From the NCBI GenBank assembly GCA_964511435.1, contig CAZEFH010000005.1, forward strand, positions 1 to 55,589: a stretch of DNA of 55,589 nt, written 5' to 3'. Origin of the DNA: an uncultured Candidatus Saccharibacteria bacterium (GTDB lineage: Bacteria; Patescibacteriota; CPR2; UBA1875; CAIMLA01). The number at the start of each line of letters is the position of its first letter. Position 1 is the first letter of the stretch. Shown piece after piece: positions 2,788-55,534 of the stretch. Under the pieces are notes generated by a model. The model did no database searches. It saw nothing but the letters and a program-made list of their open reading frames with translations, and was not told the DNA's origin. Position numbers and translations under genes: made by a program.

Positions 2788-3024
2788 TTATCTATTCACA
2801 AATGGCAACAATGCCATAATACGAGCACGCTTAATAGCAGTCGCTAGCGCACGCTGGTGCCTAGGGCAGCAGCCAGTCTTCTTCTTGGTATCGATTTTAC
2901 CAATGCTAGAAGTAAATTTCTGTAGACCCTTGATGTCCTTGTAGTCGATGAAGTCCACACGGGCTTCACAGAAACGGCAAACTTTCTTGCCAAAGTATCC
3001 TGGTTCTTGTTTTTGATATGCCAT
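2788..3024 (-). CDS. rpsR: 30S ribosomal protein S18
   Basis: CRFC, IDYKD, C..HQRALATAIKRARIMALLPF. Confidence 0.97.
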   Translation of the reverse strand: MAYQKQEPGYFGKKVCRFCEARVDFIDYKDIKGLQKFTSSIGKIDTKKKTGCCPRHQRALATAIKRARIMALLPFVNR

Positions 3025-4353: not shown

Positions 4354-4884
4354 TTAATCAATAGCGTCAGCAAGCTTCCCCTTTACGGACTCGCTCGCTT
4401 TAATGAAGGTATCTTCGACGGTAATCTTATCTTTCTCAATCGAAATAATTTGCCCAAACCCAATGGCAAGCTCTTTAAAATTACCTGATAGTAGCGGTGG
4501 ATTTACATATATTTTATCAATTGTCAGGGCCTTCATATTTAGAGTATAGTCGCGGCACTTACCGAGATACTGGCCTGAAACAGTGTAAACTTTATTTCCC
4601 GAAATACGAGCTTCCTTCTCAAGAACTTGTTTGATACGGACTATTTCATCAAGTTCGCCAAGCGACTCATATGATGCTATCAAGTAGAAATCAGAAGTGA
4701 TACCCAAAAGATCCTTCTCTGGAAGTGCTTTCAGATTCTTTTTCCCGAATCCTTCACGAACAAGAATTCCGACTAACTTGCCAGTATCAGGATCAATAAC
4801 CATATTTTCCATCACACCAACGAGGGCCTTCTCTTTCTTGAGCAAGACCGGCTTGAGGCGTAACTCTGAAGCAAACTTTATCAT
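4354..4884 (-). CDS. PRC-barrel domain protein
   Basis: Two repeats of G.v.dmviDp.tGkl / V.tvsGqyLGk..Dy pattern. Confidence 0.75.
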   Translation of the reverse strand: MIKFASELRLKPVLLKKEKALVGVMENMVIDPDTGKLVGILVREGFGKKNLKALPEKDLLGITSDFYLIASYESLGELDEIVRIKQVLEKEARISGNKVYTVSGQYLGKCRDYTLNMKALTIDKIYVNPPLLSGNFKELAIGFGQIISIEKDKITVEDTFIKASESVKGKLADAID

Positions 4885-5009
4885 AGATACATTATAGCAA
4901 AGACGAACTGGTCCCGAACCCCCGTAGGGGCCGGGACCTGCCTAGGCCCTGGGTGTTTAGCCCCGAGTTTTGGACTTCGTGGGGGTCTAGCCCACGCGAT
5001 TTTGGCCAA
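4881..5009 (-). CDS. Putative 42-aa small ORF (TTG start), GC-rich island 1
   Basis: SD GGAGGTGAT 7 nt upstream; MAKIAWARPPRSPKLGAKHPG...; runs through a hairpin, so weak. Confidence 0.3.
   Translation of the reverse strand: MAKIAWARPPRSPKLGAKHPGPRQVPAPTGVRDQFVFAIMYL
4910..4938 (-). terminator. GC-rich hairpin at 3' end of island 1
   Basis: GGTCCCG-aa-CCCC-cgta-GGGG-c-CGGGACC; no long U tract. Confidence 0.5.
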
Positions 5010-5028
5010 AAGCCGGATCACCTCCGAG

Positions 5029-5064
5029 TCAGAGACCGTTCTCGTGCTCTTGCCAGAGACTCAC
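5029..5064 (-). CDS. Putative 11-aa micro-ORF MSLWQEHENGL (GTG start)
   Basis: SD GGAGGG 6 nt upstream, just after previous stop. Confidence 0.25.
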   Translation of the reverse strand: MSLWQEHENGL

Positions 5065-5082
5065 TTCGGTCCCTCCCCTCGG

Positions 5083-5181
5083 CTAGTCGCCGATGTCAGT
5101 GCAACCGCTGTCCCTCTCCGACGGAGGGGTAGGCTGCGGCATTCCTGGGGGAATACCCCAGCCAGGCCTCTTCGAAGGCAT
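5083..5181 (-). CDS. Putative 32-aa Pro-rich small protein
   Basis: SD GGGAGGTGA overlaps stop of upstream ORF; MPSKRPGWGIPPGMPQPTPPSERDSGCTDIGD. Confidence 0.45.
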   Translation of the reverse strand: MPSKRPGWGIPPGMPQPTPPSERDSGCTDIGD

Positions 5182-5185
5182 CGCG

Positions 5186-5362
5186 TCACCTCCCGAACTT
5201 GCCGTTCTCAGCGGTGACCGTATAGCCACCTTGCGGATGACGAGTGAAGCCGTAGCTTGCCTTGCCGTTACCTTCAGACGGCTCGTGATGGTCCTGGCGA
5301 CGCCCAGTGGCGTCACGGGCCAGTCTCATCGACTGACCATTTTGCACAGTACGACTCTGCAT
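5186..5362 (-). CDS. Putative 58-aa small protein
   Basis: SD GAGGGG directly after stop of 104-aa ORF; MQSRTVQNGQSMRLARDATG...GYTVTAENGKFGR. Confidence 0.5.
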   Translation of the reverse strand: MQSRTVQNGQSMRLARDATGRRQDHHEPSEGNGKASYGFTRHPQGGYTVTAENGKFGR

Positions 5363-5372
5363 ACGTCCCCTC

Positions 5373-5687
5373 TCATCCGACGGCCATTCGCAAACGGAAG
5401 TCCGGTGTGATGATCAGCAGCCCATGTGGAAGCAGGTAACAACGCTTCTCGCTCTGATGAGCTGCTATGACAACCACACTGTGACCCCTCAGACTCACGG
5501 GAAGCTTTTTCATCTCCTTGTGGTCAAGATGGAACTTGTCCGGACCACACATCTCAGCAGTGACGCTTGTGATCCTTCGGGGACAACCAATCAGTTTGAC
5601 CTGATATGACTCCTCCCACAGCTTGGGATCAGCCCGTCGGGTCAGATTCATCCGATACAACAGTGACAGTTGCAGGCGAACTAGCAC
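5373..5687 (-). CDS. Hypothetical protein, 104 aa, first gene of GC-rich island 1
   Basis: GTG start with SD GGGAGGTG at 7 nt; AT-rich promoter-like region upstream. Confidence 0.6.
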   Translation of the reverse strand: MLVRLQLSLLYRMNLTRRADPKLWEESYQVKLIGCPRRITSVTAEMCGPDKFHLDHKEMKKLPVSLRGHSVVVIAAHQSEKRCYLLPHGLLIITPDFRLRMAVG

Positions 5688-5770
5688 GATGGACCACCTC
5701 CCAGGTACTCGTCAATGACATCACTTATAGTTTATAATCATTTCATAGATAAAGTCTAGAAAAGGAAATT

Positions 5771-7117
5771 ATGAATCCAGAAATTTTCAAAGCGTATGAC
5801 ATTCGAGGAATATATCCAACTGAGCTAAATGCAGAGGACGCAAAAAATATTGCTATGGCCTATGCCAGTTGGCTAAAACCAAAGAAAGTAGCCCTTGGTC
5901 GTGATGTCCGACTTTCTGGACCAGAACTTTGGCAGGCTGCGGCGGACGGACTTACTGAAATGGGTGTTGACGTTGTCGATATCGGCGTTATCAGTACAGA
6001 TATGCTATATTTTTCTGTCTCAAACTACGGATTTGACGGAGGGATTACACTATCTGCTTCACACAACGCCAAAGAGTACAATGGAATGAAGATGGTGCGG
6101 GAAGAAGCTCGTCCTATTTCAATTGATTCTGGTATAGCAGAAATCCGTGACCTTGCAATGCAGGGTGAATTTACGCCAGCCGAGGCTAAGGGCTCTATCA
6201 CAAAACTAGAAATTCTTGCTGATTACATTTCCAAGATGACATCATTTGTTAAGACAAATAAAATCAAGCCACTAAAAGTACTCGCAAACCCAAATTTTGG
6301 GGCCGCTGGTGCTGCTATTGAGAAATTAGCCGAAATATACAGTACAGAACTAACTAAACTAAACTTTGAACCTGATGGTAATTTTCCCAAGGGCAAGCCA
6401 GACCCGATGCAAGCCGCCGTTCGTGCCGAGACTGAAGAAATAGCAAAAAGCGGACACTTTGATTTCACCGCAATCTGGGATGCTGACGCAGACAGATGTT
6501 TCTTTTTCGATGAAAAGGGCAATTTTATACTGCCTTACTATATAACTGGTCTAATGATGGATTACTTTCTTGAGCAATACCCAAAAGTCACATTTGTAAT
6601 TGATCCACGTCTTGTCTGGATGCCTGAAAAAATTGCCTCCGAAAACACTGCACAAATCGCCATCAACAAATCTGGTCATTCATTTATAAAAGAGCGTATG
6701 CGTGATGAAGACGCGATATTCGGAGCCGAAACATCAGCGCATTACTACTTCAGAGACCTATGGTACACAGATAATGGGATGGTACCTTTCGTGATTATGC
6801 TTGAACTCGTATCGCAAAGTGATGTACCACTATCCGAGATGGTTAAAAAATATCAGAACATGTCATATGCGATAGAGGAAACCAACTTTATAGTTGAGAG
6901 TGTTCCTGACACTATTGAAAAAGTGAAGGCCGCCTTCCCAGGCGGAACAGAAAGCAATATTGACGGTATCTCAATCGAGTTTTCCAACTGGAGAATGAAT
7001 CTTCGTGGTTCCAATACTGAACCTGTGATAAGATTAAACATAGAAGCAAAAACGAAGGAACTGGCGGAAATAAAGCTCGCCGAACTCACGGAGGTAATAG
7101 GTGGGACTAAGGCATAA
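5771..7117 (+). CDS. manB: Phosphomannomutase/phosphoglucomutase
   Basis: IFKAYDIRG, catalytic SASHN, metal loop DADADR, GAETSAH, RGSNTEP. Confidence 0.95.
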   Translation: MNPEIFKAYDIRGIYPTELNAEDAKNIAMAYASWLKPKKVALGRDVRLSGPELWQAAADGLTEMGVDVVDIGVISTDMLYFSVSNYGFDGGITLSASHNAKEYNGMKMVREEARPISIDSGIAEIRDLAMQGEFTPAEAKGSITKLEILADYISKMTSFVKTNKIKPLKVLANPNFGAAGAAIEKLAEIYSTELTKLNFEPDGNFPKGKPDPMQAAVRAETEEIAKSGHFDFTAIWDADADRCFFFDEKGNFILPYYITGLMMDYFLEQYPKVTFVIDPRLVWMPEKIASENTAQIAINKSGHSFIKERMRDEDAIFGAETSAHYYFRDLWYTDNGMVPFVIMLELVSQSDVPLSEMVKKYQNMSYAIEETNFIVESVPDTIEKVKAAFPGGTESNIDGISIEFSNWRMNLRGSNTEPVIRLNIEAKTKELAEIKLAELTEVIGGTKA

Positions 7118-7472
7118 AAAAGACAAACCTGAACGTTACGACGAGGGACTGATTCGCGGTCGCAGAGCCCTCTTTATCGGTATTTTCCCGGTTTTAATCT
7201 TCCTAGGTACTATGGCTTTCGGTGCTTGGATTATTGTTGACTACTATAATAAGATTAGCGTCAACGAGGATGGTAGTGACGTCTGTAGGCTAGTACGCAA
7301 ACACTACCCCACATCCATCAAAGCCACTTATCCCTGTGACATCACTGACAAAGGTGATTTCTACTACGTGATTTTTAATCAAAATACAGGCGCTATGGGA
7401 GCTCCAGTCTATCTCAGCTTCAAAGTAATGAAGAAAGATAACAGTATTTCCCCAGCTTACGATATAAACTAA
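7101..7472 (+). CDS. Hypothetical membrane-anchored protein
   Basis: One hydrophobic helix (ALFIGIFPVLIFLGTMAFGAWIIV) then small domain with two Cys; start uncertain. Confidence 0.7.
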   Translation: MGLRHKKDKPERYDEGLIRGRRALFIGIFPVLIFLGTMAFGAWIIVDYYNKISVNEDGSDVCRLVRKHYPTSIKATYPCDITDKGDFYYVIFNQNTGAMGAPVYLSFKVMKKDNSISPAYDIN

Positions 7473-10359: not shown

Positions 10360-10448
10360 GGAAGGATCGCATAGTTGGCCTAGTGCGCACGCTTGGAAAG
10401 CGTGTATACCGCAAGGTATCGAGGGTTCGAATCCCTCTCCTTCCGCCA
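10360..10448 (+). tRNA. tRNA-Ser (GGA)
   Basis: Cloverleaf, anticodon arm CACGC-TTGGAAA-GCGTG, long variable arm, GGTTCGAATCC, encoded CCA. Confidence 0.97.
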
Positions 10449-13370: not shown

Positions 13371-15122
13371 ATGACTGAACTCGAAGAGATTAAAAATCGC
13401 CTCGATATTGTCGAATATATCGGGAAATATGTACCACTGAAACAGGCCGGGCGAAACCACAAAGGCCTGTGTCCTTTTCACAATGAAAAGACCGGTAGCT
13501 TCATGGTGAATAGCGAGAAGCAGATCTATCACTGTTTTGGATGCGGTAAGGGTGGCGATATTTTCTCTTTTGTGCAGGAGATAGAGGGCGTTGACTTCCC
13601 TACCGCCCTCAAGGAGCTCGCAGACAAGGCTGGGGTAAAGCTCCCCGAGAGAGCCAACTTCCGCAAAGAGCCGACTGACATCCTCTATGAAATCAGTGAG
13701 CAAGCTTGTCAGCTGTATGAAAAAGAGCTACATTCACCTGCAAACAAGTCAGTCCTGAATTATCTGCACGACCGCGGCATGACCGACGAAACAATCAAGC
13801 TTTATCGCCTCGGCTTCGCCCCTCAGTCTGGCGACATTGTGGTGAAAGACCTCATAAAAACCGGTTTTACTAAGGAAGACCTCATCAAGGCTGGCGTTGC
13901 CAAAGAGAGAAATGAACGTTTCCTAGACCAATTTTTTAACCGAATTACCTTCCCTATTACCAATCCGAGTGGCAAGGTGGTCGCCTTTACAGCTCGAGTC
14001 CTCGATAATTCACTCCCCAAATACATTAACACTCCTGAGACACCGATTTACCATAAATCTAGTATCCTCTTTAACTTTGACAAGGCGAAGGAACAGATTC
14101 GCAAGCAGGATCACGTTATCGTCGTCGAAGGTCAGATGGACGCAATATTTTCCTATCAGGCTGGAGTAAAAAATGTCGTTGCCTCCTCTGGAACTGCCCT
14201 CACCGAGACTCAGCTCGACCTCATCAAGAGGTTCACCAAGAATATCAAGATGTCATTTGACGTTGATAATGCTGGCCAGATAGCAACACGGCGCGCCATC
14301 GAACTAGCGTGGGCCCGTGAGTACAATATCAAAGTGATCTCTGTGCCAGAGGGCAAGGACCCTGCTGACCTCGTCAAGAGTGATCCGAAGAAGTGGGTCA
14401 AAGCTTGTCGCGAAGCCAAATATGTGGTAGACTACATCTTTGACAGCACCTTTGCTCGGTACGATCTCGGCAACATTTTACACAAAAAGGCTGCTACCAA
14501 GGAGCTCCTTGGCTGGATAAGCAAGCTTCCCGACATCGTAGAGCGTGAACACTATCTCAATCTGCTGGGCGCTAAAGTTGGCGTCAGTGTCGCATCTCTT
14601 ACAGATGCCCTCGCCAAAGTATCAAAAACCGCTAGCACGAGACGAGAGACCGCTCCAGAAAAGCCAGTTGCAAAGGAGAAAACAGGCAAAAGCCGTGAAG
14701 AACACGCTTTAGCTATGCTGCTCATAGTTCCTACATACGTCGAATTTTTCTTCAATAAGCTATCAGTAGCTGATTTTACAGAAGAAAACGTGAAAAAATT
14801 TGTCACGGACATAAAGGACATTTACGATAAAACTGAAAAATTTGACGAGTCTGCCTGGGAGAAAAACCTCAGTGAAACTGACTCATCCTATATTAAAAAA
14901 TTGATTATTCTCACAGAAGATGAGCTTGCAGAAGCAAATGACGAGCTACTCTCTGAGGAACTTTTCTACTCTGTGATGAGAGTAAAAACCGACTCGCTAG
15001 ACCGGAAGAAGAAGACTGTGAGCGCACGGCTTGCCGCCGCTGAGAAGGGTGGCGACAAAAAGCTTCAGACGGAGCTACTTACTGAGTTTCAAAAAATTAT
15101 AAATGAAGAACGAAATCTATAA
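13371..15122 (+). CDS. dnaG: DNA primase
   Basis: Zn finger CPFHNEKTGSF...HCFGCG, PKYINTPET, TOPRIM VVEGQMD, FDVDNAG. Confidence 0.98.
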   Translation: MTELEEIKNRLDIVEYIGKYVPLKQAGRNHKGLCPFHNEKTGSFMVNSEKQIYHCFGCGKGGDIFSFVQEIEGVDFPTALKELADKAGVKLPERANFRKEPTDILYEISEQACQLYEKELHSPANKSVLNYLHDRGMTDETIKLYRLGFAPQSGDIVVKDLIKTGFTKEDLIKAGVAKERNERFLDQFFNRITFPITNPSGKVVAFTARVLDNSLPKYINTPETPIYHKSSILFNFDKAKEQIRKQDHVIVVEGQMDAIFSYQAGVKNVVASSGTALTETQLDLIKRFTKNIKMSFDVDNAGQIATRRAIELAWAREYNIKVISVPEGKDPADLVKSDPKKWVKACREAKYVVDYIFDSTFARYDLGNILHKKAATKELLGWISKLPDIVEREHYLNLLGAKVGVSVASLTDALAKVSKTASTRRETAPEKPVAKEKTGKSREEHALAMLLIVPTYVEFFFNKLSVADFTEENVKKFVTDIKDIYDKTEKFDESAWEKNLSETDSSYIKKLIILTEDELAEANDELLSEELFYSVMRVKTDSLDRKKKTVSARLAAAEKGGDKKLQTELLTEFQKIINEERNL

Positions 15123-39260: not shown

Positions 39261-39293
39261 CGCACTTTCTCCTTAGTTGTAAGTATAACAAAA

Positions 39294-39316
39294 TAGAGGC
39301 CAAAAGGCCTCTATTT
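39294..39316 (-). terminator. Terminator after pnp
   Basis: AATAGAGGCC-aaaa-GGCCTCTATT. Confidence 0.75.
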
Positions 39317-48416: not shown

Positions 48417-49480
48417 TTATTCTCGCCATAGAAACTAGCTGTGATGACACCTCTGTAGCCGTCGTACGAGACGGCTCCTATATTCTTAGTTCTGTTGTAG
48501 CTACCCAGCTTGAGCACAGCCAATATGGTGGAGTAGTTCCAGAAGTCGCTGCTAGAGCGCATATTCAAAATATTGTCCCCGTACTTGACCAAGCCCTTGC
48601 TGAAGCTGAGGTTACTTGGGATGATATTGATGCGATCGCCACCACAAAGGGGCCTGGTCTTATCGGTTCGCTTATCGTCGGTGTAAACACTGCTCGTATG
48701 CTAGCAATCCTTCATAAAAAACCCTTAATTGCTGTTCATCATACAGAGGGTCACATATATGCAAATTGGCTTAGCCGTGATGCTAGTGAACAGCCTCGTT
48801 TCCCCTTAGTATGCCTTACCGTTTCTGGTGGCCACACCAACATTATCTACATGAAAGGCCACCTTGATTACGAAATTATCGGAGAAACTCAAGACGACGC
48901 TGCAGGTGAAGCTTATGACAAAGTAGCCAAGATACTTGGATTTGGTTATCCTGGAGGGCCAATTATTGCTGAACTTGCAAGGAGTGGTAATGCAGGTGCC
49001 TATACTTTCCCTCAAACCGACCTGACGGCCGCTCCTTCTAGGAATGAGGAAGGTTTTTTAGAACAAGCAACCCCAAGTCTCAATTTTTCATATTCGGGAC
49101 TTAAAAGCGCAGTTCTTAGAAAAGTCAAAGAACTTAGGGCTGACCACGAATTATCTGAGCAAGAAATATCTGACTTGGCTGGCTCTTTTCAGTTTACTGC
49201 AAATGAAATCCTCGCACGCAATCTGGAACGTGCTGTCACTAAATATAAGCCGAAGTCGATACTACTTTCAGGTGGTGTTGCGGCCAATCATGCTCTGAAG
49301 CAGCAAATCGCTTCTTGGCTCCAGAACCACGGCATCAAGTTTTTTTATCCAGAGCCAAAATGCTGCACAGATAATGCAGCCATGATTGCGGCAGCGGCCT
49401 ATTATCATGCACTTAAAAATGATCTTACAAAGCCTGAAAGCTTAATCCCAGACCCCAATCATAAGTTGACCAGCCAATAG
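48413..49480 (+). CDS. tsaD: tRNA N6-threonylcarbamoyladenosine synthesis protein TsaD
   Basis: AIETSCDDT, GGVVPEVAAR, HHTEGH, SGGHT, DDAAGEAYDK, TDNAAMI. Confidence 0.97.
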   Translation: MIILAIETSCDDTSVAVVRDGSYILSSVVATQLEHSQYGGVVPEVAARAHIQNIVPVLDQALAEAEVTWDDIDAIATTKGPGLIGSLIVGVNTARMLAILHKKPLIAVHHTEGHIYANWLSRDASEQPRFPLVCLTVSGGHTNIIYMKGHLDYEIIGETQDDAAGEAYDKVAKILGFGYPGGPIIAELARSGNAGAYTFPQTDLTAAPSRNEEGFLEQATPSLNFSYSGLKSAVLRKVKELRADHELSEQEISDLAGSFQFTANEILARNLERAVTKYKPKSILLSGGVAANHALKQQIASWLQNHGIKFFYPEPKCCTDNAAMIAAAAYYHALKNDLTKPESLIPDPNHKLTSQ

Positions 49481-49500
49481 TTATATTATATAATTTGACT

Positions 49501-49662
49501 ATAAACGCTTGAGTCGGCTAGTCACCGGCGAGTTTCTAGGAAGAAAGCTTCGGCAAGTAGAACCTAGCGGTATGGCTCTGTAAAGCCAAGAAAACAAGTG
49601 CCCTAGTGGAAGTGGGATGGTACCTCCGGCAGCTGCTGGATCCCACAGAAGCGGGTTTTTTT
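49501..49662 (+). promoter_or_regulatory. T-box riboswitch (Val, GUC specifier), ultrashort Stem I type
   Basis: Antiterminator TGGGA-TGGTACC-TCCGG/CTGGA-TCCCA; Stem II with GAA/AGTA S-turn; IIA/B-like GGCT..AGCC; upstream of valS; 7-T run. Confidence 0.85.
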
Positions 49663-49684
49663 ATTTATCAAATAGGAGTATGCC

Positions 49685-51817
49685 ATGGAGATGTCTAAGA
49701 ATTTCAAACCAAAAGAAATGGAACCATCGATTTATAAAAGCTGGGAAGAGGGTGGCTACTTTAAGCCAATCGCTCGCTATGGCTCTACCAAGCCTTTTGT
49801 GGTTACGATTCCGCCACCAAATGTTACTGGCGTTCTTCATATGGGGCATGCTTTAAACAATACGATTCAGGACGTCTTGGTCCGCTGGAACCGCATGCAA
49901 GGGAATGAAACTCTGTGGGTCCCAGGGACTGATCATGCTGGTATCGCCACACAGAATAAAGTCGAACAAAAGCTTGCTGCTAAAGGCAAAACTCGTTTTG
50001 ACCTTGGACGTGAAAACTTTGTCAAAGAAACATGGAAGTGGAAAGAGGAGTACGAAACTCGCATCCTTGGCCAGCTGAAGACTATGGGCTGCTCCTGTGA
50101 CTGGGACCACACCCGCTTTACCATGGACGCTGACTACTCAGAAGCCGTTCTCGAGGCCTTCGTTCACTATTACGAAAAGGGCTATCTATATCGAGGAAAC
50201 CGTATTACCAACTGGTGTCCACGCTGTGGCACTTCTCTCTCTGATCTTGAAGTTGAGCACGAGGAGCGTAATGATAATCTGTGGCATATTCGATATGGAG
50301 TCGAGGGCGGTGGTGAAATTACTGTTGCTACTACTCGCCCTGAGACTATGCTCGGCGACACCGCTATAGCCGTAAATCCTAGTGACAAGCGCTATAAAGA
50401 CCTCGTAGGCAAAAGAGCTATATTGCCTATCCTAGGGCGCAAAATACCTATAGTCGCTGATGATTATGTCGACGCCAAGTTCGGTACGGGTGCCGTAAAA
50501 GTTACTCCTGCGCACGATCCTAACGACTTTGAAATCGGCGAGCGACACAAGCTGGAAAAAATTGTGGTCATTGACCTTGAGGGTAAAATGTCCACTGAAG
50601 CAGGCGAACAATTTGTCGGGATAGACAGATATGAGGCACGCGAAGCCATAATCCGTTTGCTCGAAGAAGGTAAATGGCTAGTTAAAACCGAACCACACAC
50701 TCATGCTGTAGGTCATTGTTACCGCTGTCATACTGTAATTGAACCCCTGTTGACTCTCCAGTGGTTTGTGAAGATGGGTGAAATCGTGAAGCCGGCAACA
50801 GAAGTTGTTCGCTCAGGGAAAGTAAAATTTCACCCAGCAAAGTGGTCTAAGGTTTATCTTGACTGGATGGATAATATCCGTGACTGGTGTGTATCTCGTC
50901 AGATCTGGTGGGGACACCAGATACCGGCCTGGTATTGTGAGTGCGGTGAGATTATTGTCACCAAAGAAGAGCCAAAGAAATGCTCTGAATGTGGCTCTAC
51001 CAAGCTAAAAAGAGATGATGATGTTCTCGACACTTGGTTTTCTAGTGCGCTTTGGCCATTTGCCACTTTAGGTTGGCCTGACCAGTCAAACGACCTTCAA
51101 AACTATTATCCAACTTCGTTTCTGTCGACCGCTAGAGACATTATTTACCTTTGGGTAGCCAGAATGATCTTCTCTGGGCTTGAGTTTACTGGGAAGATTC
51201 CATTTGACGACGTCTACATTCATGCAACGGTTTTCAATTCGGAAGGCAAAAGGATGTCCAAGTCTCTTGGGACTGGTGTTGATCCACTTGAACTAATTGA
51301 AAAATATGGGACTGATGCAACCCGTTTCGGCTTGCTTTGGCAGGTTGCACAGGGACAAGACATGAAATTCTCTGAAGATGCACTCTTGATGTCCCAGCGG
51401 TTTGTCAATAAGATCTGGAATGCATCGAAGTTTACTCTCATGAACTTAAAGGACTACAAAATTGTTTCACGTGAAACAATAGAAAAGCAACTGACTACAG
51501 AGGACAAGCAAGTGCTAAGGAAACTTGACGGCTTAGTTAAAGAAACTAATCGTTACCTTGAAAAATACGATTTCCAACATGCAGTAGAGAATATATACGA
51601 CTTTTTCTGGCATGAGTTCTGTGATAGGTGCATCGAAGACACCAAAAAACGTATTTACGAGGAGCAAGAAAGTAAAATTGCCGCCCAATATACTCTTCAC
51701 ACTGTGCTTACAACGTCATTAAAGCTACTTCACCCATTTATGCCATTTGTTACTGAGGAGATTTGGGCTTCCCTAGATCAAAAAGATCCACTGGTTATTA
51801 CTCAGTGGCCCAAATAG
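49685..51817 (+). CDS. valS: Valine--tRNA ligase (710 aa, lacks C-terminal coiled-coil arm)
   Basis: PPPNVTGVLHMGHA, ATTRPETMLGD, DWCVSRQIWWGH, RMSKS. Confidence 0.97.
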   Translation: MEMSKNFKPKEMEPSIYKSWEEGGYFKPIARYGSTKPFVVTIPPPNVTGVLHMGHALNNTIQDVLVRWNRMQGNETLWVPGTDHAGIATQNKVEQKLAAKGKTRFDLGRENFVKETWKWKEEYETRILGQLKTMGCSCDWDHTRFTMDADYSEAVLEAFVHYYEKGYLYRGNRITNWCPRCGTSLSDLEVEHEERNDNLWHIRYGVEGGGEITVATTRPETMLGDTAIAVNPSDKRYKDLVGKRAILPILGRKIPIVADDYVDAKFGTGAVKVTPAHDPNDFEIGERHKLEKIVVIDLEGKMSTEAGEQFVGIDRYEAREAIIRLLEEGKWLVKTEPHTHAVGHCYRCHTVIEPLLTLQWFVKMGEIVKPATEVVRSGKVKFHPAKWSKVYLDWMDNIRDWCVSRQIWWGHQIPAWYCECGEIIVTKEEPKKCSECGSTKLKRDDDVLDTWFSSALWPFATLGWPDQSNDLQNYYPTSFLSTARDIIYLWVARMIFSGLEFTGKIPFDDVYIHATVFNSEGKRMSKSLGTGVDPLELIEKYGTDATRFGLLWQVAQGQDMKFSEDALLMSQRFVNKIWNASKFTLMNLKDYKIVSRETIEKQLTTEDKQVLRKLDGLVKETNRYLEKYDFQHAVENIYDFFWHEFCDRCIEDTKKRIYEEQESKIAAQYTLHTVLTTSLKLLHPFMPFVTEEIWASLDQKDPLVITQWPK
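51463..51478. other. parS centromere-like site within valS
   Basis: Perfect TGTTTCACGTGAAACA. Confidence 0.85.
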
Positions 51818-52864: not shown

Positions 52865-52957
52865 GGAGAGATACCCAAGAGGCTGAAGGGGCGGGTTTGC
52901 TAAACCTGTAGGTCGGGGTAACCTGGCGCGAGGGTTCGAATCCCTCTCTCTCCGCCA
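52865..52957 (+). tRNA. tRNA-Ser (GCT)
   Basis: Anticodon arm CGGGT-TTGCTAA-ACCTG, long variable arm, CCA. Confidence 0.96.
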
Positions 52958-52960
52958 TAA

Positions 52961-53050
52961 GGAAGGGTGCGAGAGTGGTTGAATCGAACGGTCTTGAAAA
53001 CCGTCGTACCGGAAACGGTACCGTGGGTTCGAATCCCACCCCTTCCGCCA
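52961..53050 (+). tRNA. tRNA-Ser (TGA)
   Basis: Anticodon arm ACGGT-CTTGAAA-ACCGT, long variable arm, CCA. Confidence 0.97.
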
Positions 53051-53118: not shown

Positions 53119-53880
53119 ATGGATAAAAAACTGAAAAACCTGCGTTTATATAACGCAATTGTAGGACTAATTCTATTGGTCCAGGGTGTAGTGATGTGGG
53201 CGGTCTCTAACGACGTCACGGCTACCATCACAACCAACTATCTAAAATCTGGCGGGACCATCGCTAGACCAATCTCAACACTTGAAACCTTCGGTGAGTG
53301 GAGACTAGGACCAATCATTGCTTCGTTCTTGCTACTTTCAGGGTTGTTTCTTTTGGGTTCCGCCTTTGTATGGCGCAAAAAATATGAAGAACAAGTTCAG
53401 AAAGGTATGAACCTATTTCGTTGGGCAGAATACTCAATCACATCTTCACTAATGGTGCTGGTCATCGCCATCCTCTGTGGTATTTATGATTTATCAACCC
53501 TCATCCTAATTTTTGCCCTTAATGCCTGCATGATCCTCTTTGGTTGGATGATGGAAGTGCACAATCAAACTACCAAGAAGGTTGATTGGACCAGTTACCT
53601 TTTCGGTTGCTTTGCTGGAGTTATCCCATGGGTAGTTATGGGCCTTTACTTCTTCAACGCTCTAGCTTCGGGTGGTGATGCTGTCCCGGACTTTGTTTAT
53701 GCTATTTTCTGGAGCCTATTCATTGCCTTTAACGTCTTCTCAGTAAACATGATTCTGCAATATGCAAAGATTGGCAAATGGAAAGATTATCTATATGGTG
53801 AATATGCCTATGTAACCTTTTCACTGGTCGCTAAGGCACTACTTGCCTGGCAAGTTTGGGCTGGTATCCTTCGAGGATAA
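53119..53880 (+). CDS. Heliorhodopsin
   Basis: 7 TM; N.FRWAEYS.TSS.M; FGW.ME; YGEYAY..SLVAKALLAW with retinal-binding Lys. Confidence 0.93.
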   Translation: MDKKLKNLRLYNAIVGLILLVQGVVMWAVSNDVTATITTNYLKSGGTIARPISTLETFGEWRLGPIIASFLLLSGLFLLGSAFVWRKKYEEQVQKGMNLFRWAEYSITSSLMVLVIAILCGIYDLSTLILIFALNACMILFGWMMEVHNQTTKKVDWTSYLFGCFAGVIPWVVMGLYFFNALASGGDAVPDFVYAIFWSLFIAFNVFSVNMILQYAKIGKWKDYLYGEYAYVTFSLVAKALLAWQVWAGILRG

Positions 53881-55498: not shown

Positions 55499-55534
55499 TA
55501 ATAAAAAATGAGGCAGCTTGCCTCTTTTTTTATT

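Follow-up and report, generated by a model that had tools for sequence, protein, structure and literature searches.

Can a T-box riboswitch without the distal part of Stem I control transcription of its gene, and can it do so in response to valine? The question is raised by the leader of valS, at 49502–49662 on the forward strand of contig CAZEFH010000005.1 (assembly GCA_964511435.1), a stretch of 55,589 nt from an uncultured Candidatus Saccharibacteria bacterium that is referred to below, as a whole, as the window. An initial annotation of this leader, made from the letters alone, had described a T-box with an ultrashort Stem I, re-specified to valine and ending in a transcription terminator; all of the motifs that it listed were located in their places by direct reading of the sequence, within 49502–49662. 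Taken jointly, the identity of the element as a T-box, its valine specificity and an output by transcription attenuation are, on the comparative evidence presented here, highly probable. We further consider it likely that the leader senses the charging of tRNA-Val(GAC) and attenuates transcription via a terminator in which the T-box core is nested, tRNA dependence and strand exchange being the parts of this reading that we infer. The particular model proposed for the switching of the nested terminator appears to us about equally apt to be right or wrong.

The leader escapes detection by Rfam. The T-box model of Rfam 15 (RF00230, gathering threshold 93 bits) gave no match at that threshold in the whole window, nor any at E ≤ 10 in 49400–49750, so that the Infernal run with the Rfam T-box model, one of those suggested with the initial annotation, returned nothing for this leader. 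As a control, the same model detected five of five Firmicute-type valS leaders, at 115–132 bits, and none of eight leaders of the ultrashort valS class. The bulge motif UGGNACC is uninformative by itself, since it occurs 31 times in the window, and the whole leader, folded as a single sequence, does not exceed shuffled sequences in stability (z-score +0.87). Given the missing Rfam match and the uninformative fold, evidence from other genomes has to carry the argument.

Relatives of the window's valyl-tRNA synthetase (ValS) were gathered by a genome scan, by a protein search followed by retrieval of the contigs and by a DNA pattern scan of metagenome contigs that was agnostic to the specifier. 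This yielded 12 distinct valS leaders (the window, L006, L081, L082, L085, L086, L088, L089, L094, L164, L167 and L168), the 11 from outside the window belonging to ValS proteins 63–86% identical to that of the window. A covariance model (R3) constructed from these 11 leaders, with the window excluded, finds 49502–49661 at 107 bits (E = 4e-25), the next match in the window having an E-value of 3.9. In the model-based alignment of the 12 leaders, 96.1% of the cells in 33 nested pairs are paired, versus 77% in shuffles; double-sided changes are present in 25 of the 33 pairs, none of 500 shuffles is as good, and sliding the partners by one to three columns lowers the pairing to 34–46%. RNAalifold, given no structure, returns the same helices from this alignment. 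The identification of the leader as a T-box is thus borne out by a model that had not been trained on it and by helices that covary across 12 leaders. A further covariance model, R1, gave no match in 621 kb of unrelated viral DNA. Weak model matches elsewhere in the window, at 6773–6812 (inside a phosphomannomutase gene) and at 14678–14703, were set aside as chance. The narrow version of the DNA pattern hit no viral contig and five metagenome contigs, four of them real, and a broad version hit 66 viral contigs, all by chance and none confirmed by R1.

The host is probably a member of the candidate phyla radiation (CPR), as had been supposed, since L006, which carries the same leader, as well as P0041 and P0127, are labelled "Patescibacteria group bacterium UBA1875". 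Related contigs measure 0.72–0.85 Mb. No T-box was found upstream of valS in L001–L005 (ValS 55–60% identical; actinobacterial and Saccharibacteria metagenome-assembled genomes), in L092/L093 or in L096, and the upstream region of L095 is a run of N. In L092/L093 the 330 nt upstream of valS (which begins at 3001) contain no T-box, the best R1 match (E = 0.6) lying elsewhere in the locus. ValS identity in this lineage is 65%, and the neighbours of the gene are ComEC and a metallo-beta-lactamase, as in the T-box-bearing L090 and L168; this looks like a lineage-specific loss. In L094 the open reading frame called as P0065 (766 aa) starts inside the riboswitch (L094:3001–3090), and its start is over-extended, as the T-box bulge and the terminator fall within the called coding region.

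The 5' part of the leader would constitute a decoding module, made of a K-turn-like base, a Stem I of 5 bp, a 7-nt loop with GUC followed by A, a Stem II with an S-turn and a IIA/B pseudoknot; with no distal Stem I, it would offer no platform for the tRNA elbow. The 5' half of the base of Stem I (49503–49512) comprises AAAC (49503–49506), the bulge GCUU (49507–49510), G49511 and A49512, and the 3' half (49530–49535) comprises G49530, A49531 and GUUU (49532–49535), the 3' strand of a short helix that we call the C-stem. G49511 and A49512 stand opposite A49531 and G49530, as G.A and A.G juxtapositions. In the orthologues a conserved 5' AAAGC (AAAC in the window) pairs with GCU (GUUU in the window) directly 3' of Stem I. 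Columns 3–5 and 36–38 of this helix (alignment A6) are 100% paired, with exchange of G:C for A:U, versus 3–46% in slid controls, and RNAalifold predicts the helix independently. This base had been overlooked in the initial annotation. Its resemblance to a K-turn, which canonical T-boxes likewise have at the base of Stem I, lies in the C-stem, the bulge and the G.A and A.R juxtapositions; the bulge of 4 nt is one base over the standard and the GA pairs are missing in L168, and we infer a K-turn here on these features of the sequence. For the window, RNAfold also pairs the 5' CGCUU with AAGCG, but this pairing is not conserved in orthologues and was discarded.

Stem I itself (49513–49529) is formed by GUCGG (49513–49517) and CCGGC (49525–49529), closed by the loop CUAGUCA (49518–49524). 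Its total length is 17 nt, and the long Stem I of class I T-boxes, with its distal double T-loop platform for the tRNA elbow, is absent. Compensatory changes in four of the five pairs, with 97% of cells paired, substantiate the ultrashort hairpin with a terminal specifier that had been read from the window alone. The proposed specifier, GUC (Val), occupies loop positions 4–6 (49521–49523) and is followed by A49524. When the related valS leaders are aligned, as had been recommended, GUC is invariant in all 12 while the helices around it covary. The rest of the loop differs (CUAGUCA, CCAGUCA, CUUGUCC, CCUAAUGUCA, AAGUAAUGUCGC), the base after GUC being A in ten leaders, G in one and C in one. 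The overlapping triplet UCN also occurs in every loop, with a variable third base, and the gene downstream is valS. Stem II (49536–49567) is composed of a lower helix, CUAGG (49536–49540) with CCUAG (49563–49567), and an upper helix, GC/GC, capped by UUCG, with compensatory changes in five of five and three of three pairs, respectively; the S-turn strands AAGAAA (49541–49546) and AAGUAGAA (49555–49562) are nearly invariant across leaders. The segment that follows (49568–49587) forms a Stem IIA hairpin, CGG (49568–49570) with CUG (49578–49580), and a IIB pseudoknot, GGCU (49574–49577) with AGCC (49584–49587). Stem IIA is 100% paired, its positions being invariant or changed by wobble only. The pseudoknot retains a G:C/C:G core, next to which five sequences show covariation of the flanking pair and the other seven have it unpaired. 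The S-turn of Stem II and the IIA/B pseudoknot (F-box), general hallmarks of T-boxes, are thus both present in the window leader.

The 3' part would act as a sensing module, consisting of an RRRxG...AA purine string, a vestigial Stem III, helix A1, a UGGUACC bulge that would pair with the NCCA 3' end of the tRNA, and helix A2. The linker in front of the core (49596–49611) contains AAGUG (49596–49600), which fits the RRRxG string, CCC-UAGU-GG (49601–49609), a vestigial Stem III of 2 bp, and AA (49610–49611); across orthologues this local Stem III has 0–3 bp, and it is absent in L006. The T-box core (49612–49646) displays the arrangement expected of T-boxes in general, a 7-nt UGGNACC bulge (UGGUACC, 49618–49624) between a 6-bp A1, GUGGGA (49612–49617) with UCCCAC (49641–49646), and a 6-bp A2, UCCGGC/GCUGGA, closed by the loop AGCU (49625–49640). 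Four of six A1 pairs and four of four A2 pairs show compensatory changes, and 98–99% of A1/A2 cells are paired. The bulge starts with UGGU in 11 of the 12 leaders; the discriminator base of bacterial tRNA-Val is A73, which this sequence fits. It has been reported that the discriminator requires the purine string 5'-RRRxG, Stem III, AA-3', that this string docks along the tRNA-bulge duplex and A2, and that A1/A2 alone shows no appreciable binding of tRNA (PMC7583486).

Downstream of the core, the leader departs from what is known of transcriptional T-boxes. From the linker to the U run, the sequence of every leader folds into a single extended hairpin (−21 to −28 kcal/mol) that ends at the U tract. 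Its lowest part is a basal helix, in which the Stem III region pairs with a G-rich tail; above this come a small internal loop rich in purines and then A1, the bulge and A2. In the window, RNAfold forms the 5' strand of the basal helix (49600–49607) from GCCC (49600–49603), a UA bulge and GU (49606–49607), and the 3' strand (49651–49656) from GC (49651–49652) and GGGU (49653–49656). The U tract starts at the last basal pair and comprises seven U in the window (49656–49662); each of the 12 leaders has a run of six or seven U in this position. Considered alone, the basal helix is 90.8% paired (77% in shuffles, 37–52% in slid controls), and five of its seven pairs have double changes, versus 1.5 expected, a result matched by none of 500 shuffles; RNAalifold agrees. 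The exchanges include CGC:GCG, CAC:GUG, CGAG:CUCG, UGC:GCA, CCACGU:GCGUGG and AUCC:GGAU, versus GCCC:GGGU in the window. An intrinsic terminator downstream of the T-box, a hairpin with a U tract, is hence found in all 12 leaders, as in class I T-boxes. Its 5' strand is not supplied by the 3' strands of A1/A2, as it is in that class; the covarying stem instead encloses A1/A2. Interruptions in the terminator stem explain why a scan with a consensus terminator model detected nothing on the plus strand of the leader.

In the switching model that we put forward, the OFF state would be the default: the G-rich tail, of 6–10 nt, would pair with the last base of RRRxG and the 5' half of Stem III, and would thereby extend the A1/A2 hairpin to the U tract, completing a strong intrinsic terminator. 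In the ON state, uncharged tRNA-Val would dock the purine string and the mini Stem III on the tRNA-bulge duplex, the tail would be left without a partner, the A1/A2 hairpin would end about 10 nt before the U tract and the polymerase would read through. Two elements would thus compete, the basal helix for OFF and the docked purine string, together with the mini Stem III, for ON. That they compete is proposed because the 5' half of the local Stem III doubles as the 5' strand of the basal helix, and because formation of the basal helix would put RRRxG 8–10 bp from the bulge, where the purine string cannot dock.

Several observations weigh against this reading, some of them against the switching model in particular. 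The basal helix of the window has only 6 bp with a 2-nt bulge, and the model alignment is out of register there. A1/A2 is stable alone (−8 to −17 kcal/mol), so that the ON/OFF decision would have to rest on a short basal helix versus a Stem III of 0–3 bp with tertiary contacts. Transcriptional T-boxes have been described as needing a long Stem I for fast capture of the tRNA (PMC7583486), and a co-transcriptional switch that does without it is therefore unexpected. No tRNA-Val gene from which the anticodon GAC or A73 could be read was found in the window or in any collected locus. The fit between the bulge U and A73, pointed out in the initial annotation, holds for the leaders with UGGU and fails for L086/87 (L086:2830–2985, the same in L087), which has UGGAACC in place of UGGUACC; a sequencing error is unlikely there, since the same sequence was recovered in two samples, and the A predicts U73 in the matching tRNA-Val. 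Finally, covariation was counted on alignments fitted by a covariance model, which lean towards the structure, and the 12 leaders are related to one another, four of them closely.

The same basal helix could also be interpreted as a circularly permuted Stem III that sits under A1 in both states, regulation then being kinetic or post-transcriptional (for example, through RNA stability). In solved complexes Stem III stacks on the antiterminator or antisequestrator (bioRxiv 10.1101/2023.02.28.530422); the basal helix is in just that position, with purine-rich junction strands (GGAA and AGAA) on both sides, and the local Stem III is nearly absent. A helix that persisted in the tRNA-bound state in front of U7 would, however, terminate transcription with uncharged tRNA, which is the wrong sign for an aminoacyl-tRNA synthetase gene, and, judging from PMC7583486, it would leave RRRxG the same 8–10 bp away from its contact in the bulge. 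We consider this interpretation improbable.

Slightly less probable still is classical switching as in Bacillus, in which the 3' strand of A1 (UCCCAC) would re-pair with the G-run GCGGG, giving a small terminator hairpin before the U tract. Most leaders could form a CCCY...GGGG pairing, and RNAfold produces it when A1 is left out. With free energies of 0 to −6.8 kcal/mol, these hairpins fall short of A1/A2 (−8 to −17 kcal/mol), and L089 and L082 lack them altogether; on energy they were ruled out as terminators. The yardstick is provided by the window's own terminators, which have stems of 6–13 bp. The same G-run, moreover, pairs consistently and with covariation to the upstream linker. The textbook antiterminator of the initial annotation consequently has to be given up, inasmuch as the 3' strand of A1/A2 forms with the tail nothing stronger than these hairpins and the terminator stem encloses A1/A2. 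Among the intrinsic terminators of the window are GAGGCA-GCT-TGCCTC at 55510–55524, with T runs on both strands, and one with an 11-bp stem after pnp, at 39291–39316.

Translational control, as in the actinobacterial ileS class, would require that CCUCC (49623–49627) sequester AGGAG (49674–49678), the Shine–Dalgarno (SD) sequence of valS. The known ultrashort class is indeed translational, and ACCUCC occurs in three leaders, those of the window, L006 and L094. Eight of the nine other leaders carry ACCGCCC, ACCGCUC, ACCGUUC, ACCGUCC, ACCAUCC or ACCCUCG, the SD lies anywhere from 4 to about 140 nt past the U tract, with extra hairpins in between in L082, and the hairpin with U6–7 is invariant at a fixed position. 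As the SD distance varies and no anti-SD is conserved, sequestration is very unlikely, and the earlier proposal of a terminator output with the SD outside the structure stands. Least credible is a decayed relic that serves as a constitutive attenuator or mere leader hairpin and senses no tRNA: the Rfam model is blind to the leader, which lacks Stem III and the distal Stem I, but GUC, UGGNACC and the S-turn strands are invariant, the helices show compensatory changes down to 63% ValS identity, and L092, from the lineage that lost the element, shows no trace of it.

How the proposed valine-specific, terminator-coupled T-box relates to known ones can be judged from two comparisons. The actinobacterial ileS class (Mycobacterium, Nocardia; Sherwood, Grundy and Henkin 2015; 6UFG, 6UFM), compared through its published descriptions rather than its sequences, shares with the window leader a short Stem I whose terminal loop carries the specifier and, after it, one further base, the lack of an elbow-binding distal domain, a Stem II with an S-turn, the IIA/B pseudoknot, RAG-type purines before the discriminator and a UGGN bulge. 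All ultrashort T-boxes have been reported to regulate ileS and to respond to tRNA-Ile, the class being translational (bioRxiv 10.1101/2023.02.28.530422). The ileS class thus has an AUC specifier for tRNA-Ile, sequesters the SD, has a proper Stem III and is hosted by Actinobacteria, whereas the window leader has GUC on valS, a hairpin with U7 and no conserved anti-SD, belongs to a family with a Stem III of 0–3 bp and to a class whose hosts are Patescibacteria-like.

Canonical valS T-boxes (Firmicutes, Fusobacteria; RF00230) precede the same gene and have the same order of parts from the specifier on, namely the codon, one base, the 3' strand of Stem I, the (R)AG of the K-turn, the S-turn of Stem II, the F-box/IIAB, the T-box bulge and the U tract. 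Models R1 and R2 match them at 33–59 bits (R1 at 59, 43 and 33). In L055 the Rfam match starts at 2777 and the R1 match at 2839, that is, 62 nt further in; the window class has a Stem I some 60 nt shorter than the canonical one. The canonical specifier in the loci examined is GUA in an internal loop, versus GUC in a terminal loop, and the 5' strand of the canonical terminator (in L055, AUCCGUCGCCC / GGGUGAUGGAU) consists of the 3' strands of A2/A1, whereas that of the window class lies upstream of the T-box. To judge by its sequence, the element looks like a T-box from which everything distal to the specifier loop has been deleted. Since it is collinear with canonical valS T-boxes and weakly matches them, an origin by truncation of a valS T-box appears at least as likely as re-specification of an ileS scaffold.

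A second ultrashort T-box was recovered by the metagenome pattern scan at L166:83–246 (RRZU012450504.1, a contig of 25% GC), with 58–60 bits on R1/R2. It resembles the valS class in its 5' AAAGCAUUUGAG K-turn base, 5-bp Stem I, 7-nt terminal loop, S-turn-containing Stem II, UGGUACC bulge, lack of Stem III and terminator output. It differs from that class in its loop, CAAUCAA (AUC for Ile or UCA for Ser), and in having a strong canonical overlapping terminator, in which AAAGCAGACAA / UUGUCUGCUUU shares AAAGC with the 3' strand of A1. UGA is recoded on this contig, as seen from 36 in-frame UGA codons in the IleS frame and from UGA at P-loop glycines. Recoding of this kind is found in Gracilibacteria and Absconditabacteria. 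The gene directly 3' of the T-box encodes a thymidine kinase (L166:274–855; Pfam TK 2e-44, code 25), and ileS (4566–7196) follows on the same strand 4.3 kb downstream, after six other open reading frames. The combination of an ultrashort Stem I with a terminator output is thus not confined to valS or to one lineage.

A search of the full-text literature on T-boxes in Patescibacteria/CPR and on metagenomic T-box surveys, outside which TBDB and the Rfam full alignments lay, retrieved nothing relevant, in keeping with the earlier suspicion that the combination is undescribed. In TBDB, use of the short-Stem-I (class II) covariance model was limited to Actinobacteria and to those class I hits whose Stem I is truncated. 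With the class missed by Rfam and the short model of TBDB bound to Actinobacteria, T-boxes in uncultivated bacteria with reduced genomes are probably under-annotated, and models R2 and R3 provide a means to detect further members. The prevailing view ties the length of Stem I to mechanism, in that transcriptional T-boxes "generally require" a long Stem I; a conserved ultrashort, valine-specific and terminator-coupled T-box contradicts both this requirement and the equation of ultrashort T-boxes with translational ileS switches. A natural minimal transcriptional T-box of about 160 nt should be useful for kinetics, structure determination and engineering. The nested terminator suggests, in addition, that the purine string of Stem III can be a switching strand, which would constitute a second way of coupling aminoacylation sensing to a terminator. 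More tentatively, and with somewhat less than even confidence, we propose that Patescibacteria/CPR possess their own family of minimal co-transcriptional T-boxes, without elbow contact and with more than one specifier, Val in the window and Ile or Ser in the UGA-recoded lineage, ahead of a thymidine kinase operon. In the valS branch of this family the terminator would engulf the A1/A2 helix that binds the tRNA, and uncharged tRNA would turn the gene on by holding fast the purine string of Stem III, which supplies the terminator's 5' strand, rather than by shielding A1/A2 from strand invasion.

The regulated gene, valS (49685–51817, plus strand), encodes a valine--tRNA ligase (NF004349, 1061 bits; TIGR00422, 988 bits) of 710 aa, a short form without the C-terminal coiled coil. 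This coiled coil (PF10458) is missing from the window ValS and its closest relatives (707–738 aa) and present in relatives of 870–900 aa at ≤60% identity. The 5' neighbour of the leader, tsaD, ends at 49480. A promoter-like site on the plus strand, TTGACC and TATAAT separated by a 17-nt spacer (49466–49494; 11 of 12 consensus matches), is near-consensus and places the predicted transcript start near 49501. Orthologous leaders have similar −10 boxes 10–20 nt 5' of the conserved AAAGC, which, with the −10 box of the window ending at 49494, therefore leaves no room for a long Stem I. The SD AGGAG (49674–49678) lies outside the riboswitch structure, ahead of the ATG at 49685. In L082 (2890–3000, the same in L083, L084 and L165) the valS start lies about 140 nt past the U tract, and the intervening stretch contains two further GC-rich hairpins, CCCAGCGCAGGCUGGG and AUUCCCGCCUUCGCGGGAAU. 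The window has no aminoacyl-tRNA synthetase gene other than valS. Its tRNA genes include tRNA-Ser(GCU) and tRNA-Ser(UGA), in tandem and 3 nt apart (52865–53050), a pair that adjoins valS in most related loci, and a third serine tRNA gene, tRNA-Ser(GGA), at 10360–10448. A heliorhodopsin gene is located at 53119–53880 (NF038020, 303 bits), and L081 has one at the same relative position.

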